Below are positions 3,130-9,421 of a stretch of 64,000 nt of DNA, one piece after another. The position numbers and the translations under genes are program-made. Source of the DNA: an uncultured Candidatus Saccharibacteria bacterium (GTDB taxonomy: Bacteria > Patescibacteriota > Minisyncoccia > 2-02-FULL-40-12 > GWA2-44-9); NCBI GenBank assembly GCA_964356795.1, contig CAYHIK010000005.1, positions 10,767-74,766 of the forward strand, given 5' to 3'. The first letter of the stretch is position 1. Every line of letters begins with the position of its first letter. Below the pieces are notes generated by a model, which searched no databases, had not been told where the DNA came from, and saw only the letters and a program-made list of their open reading frames with translations.

Positions 3130-3141
3130 AGAAATGAACTG

Positions 3142-3214
3142 AGGTGCCGGCGGGATTTGCACCCGCGAATGTCGGTTTTGCAGACCGATGTGTTAGCTAC
3201 TTCACCACGGCACC
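3142..3214 (-). tRNA. tRNA-Cys (anticodon GCA).
   Basis: Acceptor GGTGCCG/CGGCACC, anticodon stem TCGGT/ACCGA with loop CTGCAAA, T-arm GCGGG-TGCAAAT-CCCGC, discriminator U73 as expected for Cys. Confidence 0.85.
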
Positions 3215-3892
3215 ATTACGCATTCTCAAATACCTACGCATCACCGCTCTCTTTCTTTCAAGATATAGATGATGGGGCACTCTTCTGTACAAGAAGGTGC
3301 ACAATATAATACTATCATGAGTTGAATATCGCAATTGGAAGGATCGATGTGATACGCTGATCTTTCTCTTTTGTAGCTCAAGTCTCGCTCTTACGACCTC
3401 TTCAAGGCCGCAAAGGAAGTTTCGACTTCCTGAGGTGAAGATAGTCGACAGGCGTTTTAATATCCGCTGGCCTCTCTTTCCTGTGCCCATTTCTAGGTAA
3501 ATACATCCATCACCATCAAGATATCCTCGGATGAAATGAGCCAGATACGAGGATGGTACGTTTGGGAAGGGAATTGTCAGTGATTTATTTGGGTAAAGGC
3601 CCAACCTTGTAAGATCGTCGAAAATCTTATGACTCCCTATCCTTAGCGTATAGCGTGGCTTCCCAGGATATTTGACATCGTGTCGCAATGGCGTGATGGT
3701 ATGCTCGGAGCCCATCCACTCTCGCATGCGTTCAAGCATTATCCTGTCAGTGCTCGTTACGCTTGTATATTTCCCACGCATATACGGAGCATCCGTGAGG
3801 GATCCGTCGGCATAGAGGTAACCGAGAAGATAGGCCATTCTTGGGTGCCACCTGGAAAAGAAGTCCTCATTGACGGCATATTTTATCCCCAC
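3197..3892 (-). CDS. Free-standing double-motif LAGLIDADG homing endonuclease.
   Basis: Two LAGLIDADG motifs (LLGYLYADGS near residue 22; IRGYLDGDGC near residue 125) about 100 aa apart, as in monomeric I-SceI/I-DmoI-type enzymes. The last 6 codons (GAVVK*) are encoded by the first 18 nt of tRNA-Cys. Confidence 0.8.
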   Translation of the reverse strand: MGIKYAVNEDFFSRWHPRMAYLLGYLYADGSLTDAPYMRGKYTSVTSTDRIMLERMREWMGSEHTITPLRHDVKYPGKPRYTLRIGSHKIFDDLTRLGLYPNKSLTIPFPNVPSSYLAHFIRGYLDGDGCIYLEMGTGKRGQRILKRLSTIFTSGSRNFLCGLEEVVRARLELQKRKISVSHRSFQLRYSTHDSIILCTFLYRRVPHHLYLERKRAVMRRYLRMRNGAVVK

Positions 3893-6340: not shown

Positions 6341-6981
6341 TGCGGAGAGGGTGGGATTCGCCCTCAATTCTTTCGGAAAAAATTTGGGGGCTATCCATAA
6401 AAACTAATTCAGTTTTGAGTAAACTATCTTAAGCATTTCTTGCGGAGATAATTTACTACTATCAATTATACAAAAGTCGTCAAAAGATTTCGACTGCTGT
6501 GCTTTGAAGGTGAAGTCGAAACGATTTTTGTCAAAATCTTTACCCCTGCTTTCGTCTCGCTCCTTCACTCGTGAATGTAATACATCATAAGGTGCAATGA
6601 GAGAAAACTTGTGGAATTGAACACCATACTCATTTGAAATCATTTCGAGCCTTTTCAAGCGTTCTTCTGAAATGCCACTATCAATTACAGCATTTTTATT
6701 TTGCTCAAAAACTCCTTTCAATTTTTCAGTTATAATCTCAAACGCTCTTTTGTTGTCGCTATCTATCGAATCGGTTCTTTCAAGAAGTTTTCTCTCATTG
6801 TCCAAACTGAAAAATTCTGTATTAGAAAGATTGTTTTTGAGCAATTCTGAAAGTGTAGATTTTCCTGAACCTTTTGGCCCATCAAGAAGAATTAGATAGT
6901 TTTTCATATTAAACTTTCAATATTTCTAGTTCTCATATAACTTTTCGTGCAACTCTCTATTTGCGGAGAGGGTGGGATTCG
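6341..6981 (-). mobile_element. tRNA-associated integrated islet: a ~600 bp AT-rich (~30% GC) segment carrying a P-loop kinase gene, bounded by 20-bp direct repeats of the tRNA 3' end (att-like).
   Basis: tgcggagagggtgggattcg occurs at 6341-6360 and again at 6962-6981 (the 3' end of the tRNA at 6964-7050). GC content of the intervening DNA is far below the window average. Confidence 0.55.
6404..6907 (-). CDS. P-loop NTPase / small-molecule kinase-like protein (Walker A GPKGSGKST).
   Basis: N-terminal Walker A motif followed by a kinase-like architecture; very low GC and AT-rich codon usage relative to neighbours. Confidence 0.6.
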   Translation of the reverse strand: MKNYLILLDGPKGSGKSTLSELLKNNLSNTEFFSLDNERKLLERTDSIDSDNKRAFEIITEKLKGVFEQNKNAVIDSGISEERLKRLEMISNEYGVQFHKFSLIAPYDVLHSRVKERDESRGKDFDKNRFDFTFKAQQSKSFDDFCIIDSSKLSPQEMLKIVYSKLN

Positions 6982-7050
6982 AACCCACGAGACTCGTGAG
7001 AGTCCGGCGGTTTAGTAAACCGCTGCTTTCAACCACTCAGCCACCTCTCC
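6964..7050 (-). tRNA. Type II (Ser-like) tRNA with anticodon loop TTACTAA, formally anticodon ACU (A34); discriminator G73.
   Basis: Acceptor GGAGAGG/CCTCTCC, D-arm GCT...AGC, anticodon stem GCGGT/ACCGC, 18-nt variable arm (GGACTC-TCAC-GAGTCT), T-arm GTGGG-TTCGAAT-CCCAC. Aligns position-by-position with bacterial tRNA-Ser but has A rather than G at position 34. Confidence 0.7.
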
Positions 7051-7084: not shown

Positions 7085-7117
7085 CCGAATTTTAAAACCC
7101 CAACATCACGAAGATGT
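7085..7117 (-). terminator. Rho-independent terminator for the minus-strand gene at 7130-7561.
   Basis: CCCCAACATC...GATGTTGGGG 10-bp stem followed by a T-tract in minus orientation. Confidence 0.5.
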
Positions 7118-7129
7118 TGGGGTGGTTAA

Positions 7130-7561
7130 TTAGGGCCTGCTTGTTTGCGTAGACGCCGCTCGCAGTAGTGGGGCGAAGCGGGCGGTGAGCGATGGGAAGA
7201 TTCTGACCAAATTCGTCAAAATGTCCGGTAGTGCTTGATGGACCAGCTGGACGTGACTCATTTCGATCGCGCTGGATCCCCAGTCGGCCGAGTAGGCGTA
7301 CACACCACGACCTCCCACGTGAACAGAAGCGTTAATTCCGACGTGGTCTCGCTTACACATGATGATTTCCCAGCTGAGCCCGGGAGTGGTGAATGCGCAA
7401 ATGATCTCGTGATAGCGAAAATGGGCGACATCCTGTTTGGTGAGGAATCCTCGGGCGATCCCGATGATAGCATCGATTTCCCATTTCATCTGGTTAAGTC
7501 TTTGAGAGCCCGCCAGAATTTGCTGGATTTGCTTCATGTTAACTGCAATTTCGTTTTCCAC
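7130..7561 (-). CDS. Hypothetical protein (143 aa).
   Basis: ORF with normal GC and a downstream terminator; no recognisable motifs. Confidence 0.5.
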   Translation of the reverse strand: MENEIAVNMKQIQQILAGSQRLNQMKWEIDAIIGIARGFLTKQDVAHFRYHEIICAFTTPGLSWEIIMCKRDHVGINASVHVGGRGVYAYSADWGSSAIEMSHVQLVHQALPDILTNLVRIFPSLTARFAPLLRAASTQTSRP

Positions 7562-7735
7562 TGATTCGGCTCCTGTATCCAGGGCCCCCTATCGGGGTCG
7601 GTTGTGAACGTGCTGCTACTGGCGGGGACGATGTCCCGAAATTAGAACCAAAACGGCTTAATTTCAGGAGCGTTGATAAAATGGTACGGGATTTAAGGCG
7701 AATATTCAACGAAAATCCTGCCTTATTCGATATTC

Positions 7736-7930
7736 CTACTTTCGCGCAGAAACAGTATTAACTATCTGCTCAACTTCTTTATCTGTAACCTTTGAGCCCG
7801 AAAGGCGGGCAGATGCACCAGTGGAGGCTATAAGCGTGGCACGACGAAGTTCCGCCAGACGTTCTGATGAGATGCCAGTACTCTTCTTTATGTGCTTAGA
7901 TTTTGTCATAGAAATGTTCTTTTTAAGCAA
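7736..7930 (-). CDS. Small basic hypothetical protein (~57-64 aa).
   Basis: Start overlaps the stop of the upstream hydrolase gene by 8 nt (translational coupling); AT-rich. Weak support. Confidence 0.35.
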   Translation of the reverse strand: MLKKNISMTKSKHIKKSTGISSERLAELRRATLIASTGASARLSGSKVTDKEVEQIVNTVSARK

Positions 7931-8489
7931 CTATATCTTGAAACTCCTTAATTAATATTGGAGCTTCAATAAAGCCGTCACTTTCAGAAATATGTCCGGC
8001 ATCATGAAGCACTGTAATCTTTGATCCCAACTCTGCAAATTTCTCCTTATTTTCCTCAAATGCTCCGAACGGATCATTATCAGAAATAACCAATGTCGAT
8101 TTCGGAAGCACTGTCTTAACTTTCTGGATATTGATAGGAGTTTCTAACCAAGGTTTGGCTATTTCTTCTGTTTCTTCATCCTCCAAATTTTCTAGATTAA
8201 ACCAGCCAGCCACAAAGAGTGCTCCACCAACAGGAGTATTAATATTTTCTAGGTATCTTAAGATAGTCTGACAACCTATTGAGTGACCAATAAAATAAGT
8301 ATTGTTATCCGGAGTGCCGACAACTTCCGCAAGTTTAGCCACCCATTTTTCAATGACAGGTGTATCAATATCTGGCATGTCAGGCAACAAAACTTGGTAT
8401 CCTAATTTCTCCAACTCTGTTTTAAGCCAAGGTCTCCAATCGCCTTGTGCCCCTGCCATCCACTGATGAATAATAATTACTTTTTTCAT
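7923..8489 (-). CDS. Alpha/beta-fold serine hydrolase of the RBBP9/YdeN-like family.
   Basis: GHSIG nucleophile-elbow motif (GxSxG) in a ~190-aa alpha/beta hydrolase with Asp/His later in the sequence; low GC. Confidence 0.7.
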   Translation of the reverse strand: MKKVIIIHQWMAGAQGDWRPWLKTELEKLGYQVLLPDMPDIDTPVIEKWVAKLAEVVGTPDNNTYFIGHSIGCQTILRYLENINTPVGGALFVAGWFNLENLEDEETEEIAKPWLETPINIQKVKTVLPKSTLVISDNDPFGAFEENKEKFAELGSKITVLHDAGHISESDGFIEAPILIKEFQDIVA

Positions 8490-8550
8490 GTCAGTTCGAA
8501 TCCCTTTGGGGGTGTACCTAAAAAATCATTTATTTACTTAATAAAATCAC

Positions 8551-8642
8551 TGGCGGAGGCGGGAGGATTCGAACCTCCGAGGGGTTTTGAAGCCCCTGCC
8601 TCTTTAGCAAAGAGGTACATTAGACCACTCTGACACGCCTCC
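8551..8642 (-). tRNA. tRNA-Ser (anticodon GCU), type II, with encoded CCA.
   Basis: Acceptor GGAGGCG/CGCCTCC, anticodon stem CCTCT/AGAGG with loop TTGCTAA, long variable arm CAGGGGCTTCAAAACCCCTC, T-arm GGAGG-TTCGAAT-CCTCC, G73, CCA. Confidence 0.85.
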
Positions 8643-8698: not shown

Positions 8699-9421
8699 TC
8701 AACCGTGCGCGATGGTGATGGCGGACACGGTGTGTGCGCCTGATTCCTTGAGTGCGGACGCACAGTTTTCCAGTGTGGCTCCGGTGGTGCGTACGTCGTC
8801 AATGATGACAAAGTTTTTTCCACGAACCTCCGAAGCATCGTTCACGCTAAATGCTCCCGACATATTTTGGATGCGCTCCTCGCGCGAGTGAGTTGTGACT
8901 TGAGAGTCGGTACGACGATTTCGAGTGAGGATGGTGTCGTCGAATGGCATCGCGGCGATTGCGGCAAATTCTTTTGCGATAAGAGATGCTTGGTTGTACC
9001 CGCGTTCACGGAGGCGTGCGCTGTGGAGGGGGACGGGGATGAATACCGGATTGTGGCCCAACAATAAATGAGGGCGAGATGATGAGATTCCGAGTGCGTA
9101 TGCTGTGGCACGCGCGAGGGGGACTGCTAATCCGCGGATTCCTCGGTATTTCAGATGATAGATTGCGGTTTCGACGACGCCGTCCATAAGAAATGCCGAT
9201 ACGCAGCGGTCGATGGTGGATTTCGGCGAGTGCTGATACGACGCGATTTTAAATCCTCGAACACACTCATTGCACAGGTCTATGCCGATGGTCGAGCATC
9301 CAACGCATCGCGCGGGCCAGAGCGTGTCGATGAGCCATGTTTGTAGTTCGCGTATATTCATCCACACATGAGATAAATTGATTGTCCATCGTGGTATACT
9401 TGAAATACGCATGGCATTCAA
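8699..9421 (-). CDS. comF: ComF family competence protein (phosphoribosyltransferase domain with N-terminal zinc finger).
   Basis: N-terminal Cys cluster (CVGCS...CNEC) and C-terminal PRTase motif VIIDDVRTTGATL. Confidence 0.8.
   Translation of the reverse strand: MNAMRISSIPRWTINLSHVWMNIRELQTWLIDTLWPARCVGCSTIGIDLCNECVRGFKIASYQHSPKSTIDRCVSAFLMDGVVETAIYHLKYRGIRGLAVPLARATAYALGISSSRPHLLLGHNPVFIPVPLHSARLRERGYNQASLIAKEFAAIAAMPFDDTILTRNRRTDSQVTTHSREERIQNMSGAFSVNDASEVRGKNFVIIDDVRTTGATLENCASALKESGAHTVSAITIAHG

Follow-up and report, generated by a model that had tools for sequence, protein, structure and literature searches.

A tRNA-Ser gene with an encoded A34 (anticodon ACU) conserved in Patescibacteria and carried by uncultured phages

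Does a bacterial tRNA-Ser gene that encodes an adenosine at position 34, the anticodon's first nucleotide, specify a working tRNA, and which codons would such a tRNA read? The question is raised by a 64,000-nucleotide stretch of DNA from an uncultured Candidatus Saccharibacteria bacterium (contig CAYHIK010000005.1 of assembly GCA_964356795.1, positions 10,767 to 74,766; hereafter the window), which carries on its minus strand, at 6964..7050, an 87-nt tRNA-Ser gene with the anticodon ACU. An earlier note on this DNA had held that A34 is essentially absent from bacteria outside tRNA-Arg(ACG), in agreement with the prevailing view in the literature, and had offered three options for the gene, namely that it decodes AGU only, that it is a decaying paralogue, or that its decoding is altered. 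Judged from comparison of sequences, A34 in tRNA-Ser appears to be a lineage-wide trait of Patescibacteria (the candidate phyla radiation, CPR), conserved and under structural selection, and not a private mutation. The account that we favour, and to the whole of which we give a probability of roughly 0.68, is that the gene would encode a working tRNA, charged by seryl-tRNA synthetase (SerRS), whose unmodified A34 would read AGU by Watson-Crick pairing, and that it would be inherited vertically as one half of a CPR pair of tRNA-Ser(ACU) and tRNA-Ser(GCU) genes.

The tRNA-Ser(ACU) gene and its relatives

ARAGORN found six tRNAs in the window, among them the minus-strand genes tRNA-Ser(act) (6963-7050) and tRNA-Ser(gct) (8551-8642), and gave no differing fold for the former. 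The Rfam tRNA model (RF00005) matched the ACU gene (7050..6964; GGAGAGGUGGCUGAGUGGUUGAAAGCAGCGGUUUACUAAACCGCCGGACUCUCACGAGUCUCGUGGGUUCGAAUCCCACCCUCUCCG) with 60.6 bits, the gathering score being 29, and the minimum-free-energy fold was the cloverleaf (z = -3.45). This cloverleaf has a 7-bp acceptor stem, a 3-bp D stem plus G13/A22, an anticodon arm with a 5-bp stem (GCGGU/ACCGC) and a 7-nt loop (UUACUAA, 7012-7018), a paired long variable arm with a stem of 6 bp, and a T arm of GUGGG-UUCGAAU-CCCAC; with U33, a purine at 37, the T loop UUCGAAU and G73 it has the features of a type II tRNA-Ser. The plus strand reads AGT at 7014-7016, so that the anticodon A34-C35-U36 lies at 7016-7014 of the minus strand, as given both by direct reading and by the columns of the Rfam alignment. 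The type II architecture, long variable arm, G73 and A34 that had been noted earlier were all borne out by ARAGORN, Rfam and the fold, and the loop of the nearby tRNA-Ser(GCU) was confirmed as UUGCUAA, with G34. Another register of the ACU loop, with an extended stem and a loop of 3-5 nt or with a UUA or CUA suppressor anticodon, was rejected because ARAGORN and the Rfam alignment give the 5-bp stem and 7-nt loop, and it is also countered by the neighbouring GCU tRNA, the loop of which is identical but for G34.

The window gene carries G73, G1-C72, G2-C71, A3-U70 and C11-G24, the identity set known from E. coli SerRS. Because SerRS ignores the anticodon and all of the serine identity elements checked are present, serylation of the ACU tRNA would be expected. 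No 3' CCA is encoded, nor is it by four of the other five tRNAs in the window. By every sequence criterion tested the gene is a real and intact member of the tRNA-Ser family, for which charging and expression are predicted, and its anticodon is complementary to the serine codon AGU, although ACU has not previously been accepted for this family (PMC8007984).

A sequencing or assembly error at A34, the caveat that the earlier note itself had raised, was rejected, as the same A34 was found in an independent assembly and in at least 27 other genomes. Replicate contigs from Hainich groundwater well H41 (0.1 µm fraction) were reached via the kinase protein encoded beside the ACU tRNA. One of these (L001, from ERZ1292619, a separate replicate-sample assembly) was 99.95% identical to the window over 4267 bp, with 2 differing positions, and it too has the ACT anticodon. 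A contig from a third replicate (L244, ERZ1292624) carries both Ser tRNAs; it matches the window at 100% over 12.9 kb and could be the sequence from which the window derives.

One genome per GTDB species was then scanned with the anticodon arm, position 34 being left free (GCAGCGGTTTNCTAAACCGCC), which returned at least 120 loci with this one exact arm. Among the 120 matches listed, position 34 was G in 71, A in 27, T in 17 and C in 5, with the T and C matches being ordinary tRNA-Arg(UCU/CCU) genes or unrelated matches. All 27 of the listed A34 matches were type II tRNAs with G73, and tRNA-Ser(act) was called by ARAGORN in 26 of them (the copy in L030 is cut at a contig end). CPR taxon labels were carried by 15 of the 27 (Saccharibacteria, Gottesman-, Levy-, Woese- and Pacebacteria, Minisyncoccia and 'Patescibacteria group'), and nine further loci were labelled 'bacterium', Gammaproteobacteria, Pseudomonadales or Acidiferrales, with tblastx matches mainly or only to CPR-labelled loci. 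The remaining listed A34 loci were L030, 5'-truncated and unplaced, and two from high-GC Planctomycetota bins (L009 and L033). A CPR label was found on none of the 71 listed G34 matches, the sources of which were Chloroflexota, Verrucomicrobiota, Nitrospira, Bacteroidota and others. The comparison with orthologues that had been proposed earlier is therefore one in which A34 is kept, in at least 27 species-level genomes.

The window gene was aligned with 27 ACU genes (28 sequences), one of which, L052a, differs in its anticodon stem and came to light through ARAGORN alone. Standard pairing was observed in 98.4% of the alignment cells, compared with 84.3% in shuffles and 37-64% with slid partners, and compensatory double changes were seen in 15 of 25 pairs, with all four of the variable-arm pairs tested covarying. 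G1-C72, G2-C71, A3-U70, C11-G24, G73 and the anticodon loop were invariant in the 28 tRNAs. The loop UUACUAA was constant in these 28 genomic copies and in 52 viral copies, a constancy imposed by the search pattern except for L052a. In a Levyibacteriota metagenome-assembled genome (MAG) (L052:1-3507) seven tRNAs lie in 3.5 kb, namely Ser(CGA), Arg(GCG), two Ser(UGA), Ser(GCU) and two different Ser(ACU); one of these ACU genes has the anticodon stem ACGGU/ACCGU, and the ACU anticodon is thus not bound to a single stem sequence.

The partner tRNA-Ser(GCU) of the window (8551..8642, minus strand; ARAGORN, Rfam 51 bits) lies 1.5 kb from the ACU gene and has a divergent body, a U10/U25 mismatch and an encoded CCA. 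A tRNA-Ser(GCU) was found within 8 kb of the ACU gene in 7 of the 27 listed loci as well as in the window. Upstream of the window's Ser tRNA pair is a comF-like phosphoribosyltransferase gene (8699..9421, minus strand; from tblastn, with Pfam Pribosyltran recorded in L244), which served as a synteny anchor. Homologues of comF (tblastn, 30-35% identity) were present in the ACU loci L032, L048, L052, L063, L068, L079 and L099, adjoining the Ser tRNAs in most of these seven, and the order comF, tRNA-Ser(GCU), tRNA-Ser(ACU) was seen in several (e.g. L032, L048 and L068). When comF loci were sampled independently of the tRNA sequence, most of the best 80 proved to be contigs that had no adjacent tRNA and whose lineage was uncertain. 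The divergent placement of pilM seen in the window recurs in the Saccharibacteria locus L063. The gene content of the window, with a short IF-2, PilM/N/O/B, ComF, GatB and a free-standing LAGLIDADG open reading frame (ORF), would indicate a Patescibacteria (CPR) genome, and in keeping with this are the 0.1 µm groundwater fraction as source and the closest tRNA and PilM matches, which were to MAGs labelled Candidatus Saccharibacteria or Patescibacteria.

Because the window GCU gene has a close orthologue in L063 with the same U10/U25 mismatch, both Ser genes are taken to be native, and a foreign origin of the GCU copy, at which its encoded CCA had hinted, was rejected. In the window CCA is encoded by this gene only, being absent from tRNA-Arg(CCG), Leu(UAA), Cys(GCA), Asp(GUC) and Ser(ACU); it coincides with the boundary of a hydrolase-encoding islet (described below), and the 3' end of the GCU gene may therefore come from an integrated element.

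Over positions 1-45 the window ACU gene differs only at position 34 from the GCU genes that a Kiritimatiellae MAG (L004) and a Verrucomicrobia MAG (L072) carry. A second CPR ACU body type (GGAGAGGUCGCAUAGUGGCCUAGUGC...) has a 5' half near-identical (1-2 D-loop differences), position 34 aside, to that of a Chloroflexota (Limnocylindria-labelled) GCU gene. On these likenesses, the canonical bacterial tRNA-Ser(GCU) body appears to have been kept by the ACU copy, with the GCU genes of CPR as the divergent partners, and the ACU gene appears to belong to an ancient, lineage-wide ACU/GCU pair and not to be a one-off variant of the neighbouring GCU gene. Among the matches listed, tRNA-Ser(GCU) is directly followed by tRNA-Arg(GCG), an anticodon listed as missing in bacteria by a review, in L008, L012, L015, L018 and about 30 more Chloroflexota-labelled loci (Chloroflexia, Limnocylindrales/Limnocylindria). 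These loci, and the likeness to the 'type 2' ACU gene of CPR, would fit a CPR-Chloroflexota relationship and a shared non-use of inosine.

Decoding of AGU and the alternatives

In the account that we favour, the ACU gene would be a direct descendant of a canonical bacterial tRNA-Ser(GCU), formed by a single G34-to-A change and passed on vertically within an ACU/GCU pair widespread in Patescibacteria. Its A34, encoded in the genome and most likely left unmodified, would form a Watson-Crick pair with U3 of AGU on a tRNA charged by SerRS, and AGC (and AGU by wobble) would be covered by the divergent tRNA-Ser(GCU) 1.5 kb away. A34 would be tolerated in the split AGN box because, without an A-to-I wobble system, no inosine forms to misread the Arg codon AGA. 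In the CPR loci we found four cases of tRNA-Arg(GCG) and none of tRNA-Arg(ACG), which has been reported as apparently lacking in CPR, inosine being unused by some deep-branching bacteria (Shulgina and Eddy 2021, PMC8629427). Since these CPR relatives carry tRNA-Arg(GCG) and not ACG, they appear not to use inosine. The sequences themselves show an intact gene, its conservation, covariation and synteny, AGA as an Arg codon and the att-like repeat, and to these we would add, as the most likely state of affairs, an unmodified A34, a reading of AGU only and a link to the absence of TadA. An orthogonal tRNA with the ACU anticodon read AGU at 9.4% in E. coli, with AGC and AGA below detection and AGG at 0.36% (PMC11066159). 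Decoding of AGU only is the best supported of the three options offered by the earlier note, its decoding range being one that we infer.

AGU made up 65% of AGY codons in CPR loci compared with 25% in non-CPR loci, a usage that fits demand for AGU decoding. AGA is an Arg codon in this genome, as three solved GatB structures have a conserved Arg at the position of R230 of GatB (an AGA codon in the window); further AGA sites, in PilB and in a ligase-like protein, fall in what we take to be conserved-Arg motifs. Reassignment of AGA to Ser was rejected on the GatB site, and the altered decoding that had been suggested for the tRNA was, in this form, not supported.

Several points weigh against the favoured account. 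The comparison of AGU with AGC usage that had been called for gave an AGU majority in the CPR loci, but within the window, which is unusually GC-rich, AGU is outnumbered by AGC (124 compared with 195, or 39% of AGY codons). AGU can already be read by G34 wobble, and the selective benefit of a dedicated ACU tRNA is not accounted for. A simple sigma-70 scan upstream of the ACU gene gave no promoter-like site, a result that says little for CPR. In L278 and L306, the lineage of which is not established, comF adjoins tRNA-Ser(GCU) with no ACU gene within 4-8 kb, and the numbers of ACU genes given here for CPR are lower bounds from one exact anticodon arm.

It is unlikely that TadA or another deaminase converts A34 to inosine, which would give an ICU anticodon reading AGU, AGC and, to some extent, AGA. 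Bacterial A34 is normally only the precursor of I34 in tRNA-Arg(ACG), but the ACU loop has U36 where tRNA-Arg(ACG), the only common bacterial A34 tRNA, has G36. TadA generally requires the UACG motif, and the UACU context of the ACU loop differs from that of tRNA-Arg(ACG). With ICU, moreover, there would be no need for the retained GCU partner, and AGA, conserved as Arg in the window, would be misread; because AGA is common in the CPR loci (13 per 1000 codons), such misreading would be costly. A scan of the window and loci for deaminase motifs found nothing, although it covers 64 kb of the genome and says little on the absence of TadA. For a split-box A34 tRNA (Phe-AAA) produced in E. coli, at least partial conversion to I34 was inferred (2026 preprint, 10.64898/2026.05.15.725136), but E. 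coli has TadA and yet the ACU-anticodon tRNA gave no detectable AGC reading there (PMC11066159), and CPR relatives have tRNA-Arg(GCG) in place of the ACG gene reported lacking in CPR (PMC8629427).

There is little probability that the gene came in with a phage or mobile element, on an AT-rich islet, and does not belong to the host's own set of tRNAs. In IMG/VR, 52 viral contigs, the longest of them 323 kb, contain the exact ACU arm (loci L123-L174; e.g. L144:880-1830 and L128:3600-4700), the phage gene lying nearly always inside a tRNA array such as Thr(UGU)-Gln(UUG)-Asn(GUU)-Ser(ACU)-Ile(UAU)-Glu(UUC)-Lys(UUU); in addition, islets flank the window gene, and co-occurring strains differ at both tRNA 3' junctions. 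However, the window tRNA lies outside the islet, the boundary repeat of which is the tRNA's own 3' end, and its body matches that of ACU genes on the chromosomes of Saccharibacteria and other Patescibacteria (L120, L063, L029 and L090) and not the phage family GGAATCTTGGCCGAG... Its lack of an encoded CCA is shared with the window's other tRNAs except tRNA-Ser(GCU), and the comF synteny is common to distant CPR.

The phage ACU genes form a body family of their own (GGAAUCUUGGCCGAG...) in which G73 and the long variable arm are kept, and some acceptor- and T-stem differences between copies, which were not counted, look compensatory by eye. The G34 version of the arm was found in 66 viral contigs; tRNA-Arg(ACG) accompanies 26 of 64 viral GCU arrays and 0 of the 52 ACU arrays. 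No exact match to the ACU arm was found in 50,697 GenBank phage records, in which a match in Felix O1 turned out to be a UCU-type arm, and the phages with ACU arrays have no close relative in GenBank. The ACU genes of the two Planctomycetota bins (L009:2976-3066 and L033:7429-7519) have a U50/U64 T-stem mismatch and a body resembling that of phage copy L162, and may be prophage-borne or mis-binned phage DNA.

Similarly improbable is a tRNA-Ser that acts outside translation, as a seryl donor for cell-wall or lipid aminoacylation or as a mere attachment site, with its anticodon irrelevant. Such a role would account for the apparent redundancy in decoding, since GCU can read AGU and AGC alike; tRNA isoacceptors with a non-proteinogenic role are known from the peptidoglycan synthesis of Gram-positive bacteria, and the gene does serve as an integration site. 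It would not account for a loop that is invariant in the genomic and viral copies (within the limit that the search pattern sets), for phages placing the ACU gene among ordinary decoder tRNAs for A/U-ending codons, or for AGU being the preferred AGY codon in CPR loci, and no Fem/MurM-type gene was present in the surrounding ORF list.

The decaying paralogue of the earlier note, a redundant tRNA-Ser(GCU) copy with a G34A change on its way to becoming a pseudogene or drifting neutrally, is refuted to the extent that we consider it barely credible: a functional GCU gene 1.5 kb away, the one-position difference from the canonical GCU body and a location among inserted AT-rich islets would favour it, but the 28 ACU genes behave as a functional tRNA family in their pairing, covariation and invariants, ACU is kept in about 25 CPR species-level genomes among the matches listed (with A34 fixed in at least 27 species-level genomes of several CPR classes), compensatory substitutions maintain every helix, the serine identity elements are invariant, and synteny with comF and the GCU gene is conserved. 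Neither broken helices, nor lost identity elements, nor a lineage-restricted occurrence was found, the gene being present in several CPR classes.

AT-rich islets and neighbouring features

Directly 3' of the ACU tRNA lies an AT-rich islet (6361..6962, minus strand, 602 bp), delimited by its composition (33-36% GC compared with about 52% for the window) and by a bounding 19-nt direct repeat (CGAATCCCACCCTCTCCGC). The attL-like copy of this repeat (6963..6981, minus strand) comprises the 3' half of the T arm, the acceptor 3' strand, G73 and 1 nt more, and the attR-like distal copy (6342..6360, minus strand) is exact at 19 of 19 nt; just 2 copies were found in the window, compared with 0.02 expected by chance. 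The islet bears the marks typical of an insertion at the 3' end of a tRNA, and this exact repeat supported the earlier claim that the ACU tRNA is its integration target. Separately from any decoding role, the 3' end of the tRNA appears to have been used as the attachment site for a small AT-rich islet. The cargo is a single ORF (6404..6907, minus strand) encoding a 167-aa P-loop kinase-like protein (AAA_33/AAA_18; Pfam PF13671 7.4e-13, PF13238 1.2e-11), and no integrase or recombinase gene was found inside the islet. The empty-site junction pattern gave 0 matches in metagenome contigs.

A second AT-rich islet (7631..8550, minus strand) lies 3' of tRNA-Ser(GCU) and contains a Ser_hydrolase ORF (7923-8489; PF06821 2.2e-25) and a 64-aa ORF (7736-7930); its bounding repeat is weak (11 of 13 nt, at 7618-7630 and 8549-8561). 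Between the two islets is a GC-rich ORF of 143 aa (7130-7561, minus strand) with no Pfam match, followed by a strong hairpin and T-run at 7096-7128, just upstream of the ACU tRNA.

The groundwater contigs differed from the window at both tRNA junctions. In L001 (L001:1-344 compared with window 8558 onward) divergence begins within the last 8 nt of tRNA-Ser(GCU), and this gene and comF are replaced by unrelated AT-rich sequence ending in a tRNA-3'-like remnant (CCCCTCTCCGCCA). In L002 (L002:1-21 compared with window 6995) an apparent tRNA-Ser(GGA) anticodon arm is joined to the last 32 nt of the ACU tRNA and the kinase islet. These differences are either mobile-element or strain variants at integration hot spots, or the product of chimeric low-coverage (2-3x) contigs.

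Elsewhere in the window, tRNA-Cys(GCA) (3141-3214, minus strand; Rfam 64.5 bits) has the T loop UGCAAAU, with G for the near-universal U55, and GC in place of the usual G18-G19 in its D loop, which could be covariation of the tertiary contact between D loop and T loop. The free-standing LAGLIDADG-type homing endonuclease ORF (3197-3892, minus strand) lies between tRNA-Cys and infB, its end overlapping the 5' end of tRNA-Cys; it has a lower GC of 46% and a markedly atypical codon usage, with 10 AGA and 5 AGG in 231 codons, compared with about 3 per 1000 of each window-wide. In a metagenome contig (L321, Ga0209986_10000968), about 3.4 kb downstream of a comF homologue and beside tRNA-Gly(GCC), ARAGORN called a suppressor-type tRNA with the anticodon UUA (reading UAA), a possible sign that the organism or element concerned recodes a stop codon.

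Comparison with known systems

A34 in the Ser/Arg split box has been described as 'universally missing' in a 2021 review (PMC8007984), the taxon list of which holds no CPR phylum. A 2026 preprint (10.64898/2026.05.15.725136), in which the word 'Patescibacteria' is absent, reports that seven split-box tRNAs with A-starting (ANN) anticodons are universally absent, that ANN tRNAs are absent from phages and, from a GtRNAdb-based survey, that split-box ANN genes are extremely rare. No paper describing tRNA-Ser(ACU) in CPR was found in the literature searched, and earlier notice outside the searchable literature is possible. On slightly better than even odds, Patescibacteria and a family of uncultured tRNA-array phages routinely use an encoded, probably unmodified A34 tRNA-Ser(ACU) for AGU, its fixation being linked to the loss or absence of TadA and inosine, of which tRNA-Arg(GCG) in the place of tRNA-Arg(ACG) would be the sign.

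The near-absence of A34 tRNAs is a long-standing open question, and an ACU gene conserved in CPR and recurring in phage tRNA arrays would be a natural counter-example to a textbook-level generalisation, found in bacteria that also appear to be without tRNA-Arg(ACG) and inosine. If this is true, CPR offer a natural case in which to test why anticodons beginning with A are avoided elsewhere, and the question is testable in cultivable Saccharibacteria co-cultures. The finding also bears on annotation, in which ACU Ser tRNAs from CPR genomes or phage bins ought not to be set aside as errors or as pseudogenes, and engineers of orthogonal, AGU-specific decoding may find a use for them.

Like the genomic islands and integrative elements that target tRNA genes, the kinase islet is a segment of foreign composition that lies directly 3' of the gene between two exact 19-nt copies of the tRNA 3' end; being only 602 bp long, with one kinase-like ORF and without an integrase, it would be a remnant or a satellite-like passenger. 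Compared with the canonical tRNA-Ser(GCU) (serV type), the ACU gene has the same architecture and SerRS identity elements, but has A34 and not G34, which by wobble rules would read AGU but not AGC, and it coexists with a divergent GCU gene, whereas the canonical tRNA is the sole AGY decoder. With tRNA-Arg(ACG), which becomes ICG after the action of TadA, it shares an encoded A34 and U33-A34-C35 in a 7-nt loop; it differs in having U36 and not G36, in lying in a split box, where inosine would cause Ser/Arg misreading, while tRNA-Arg(ACG) sits in a family box, and in a CPR host lineage that appears to be without the ACG/inosine system. The unmodified-A34 tRNA-Thr(AGU) of Mycoplasma and tRNA-Leu(AAG) of Lactobacillales are, like the ACU tRNA, natural non-Arg ANN tRNAs fixed in their lineages (PMC8007984, PMC11066159, 10.64898/2026.05.15.725136). 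Those A34 tRNAs of Mollicutes and Lactobacillales, however, serve four-fold family boxes in which superwobble is harmless and usually replace the gene with a G-starting (GNN) anticodon, whereas the ACU tRNA belongs to a two-fold split box in which the GNN gene is kept.

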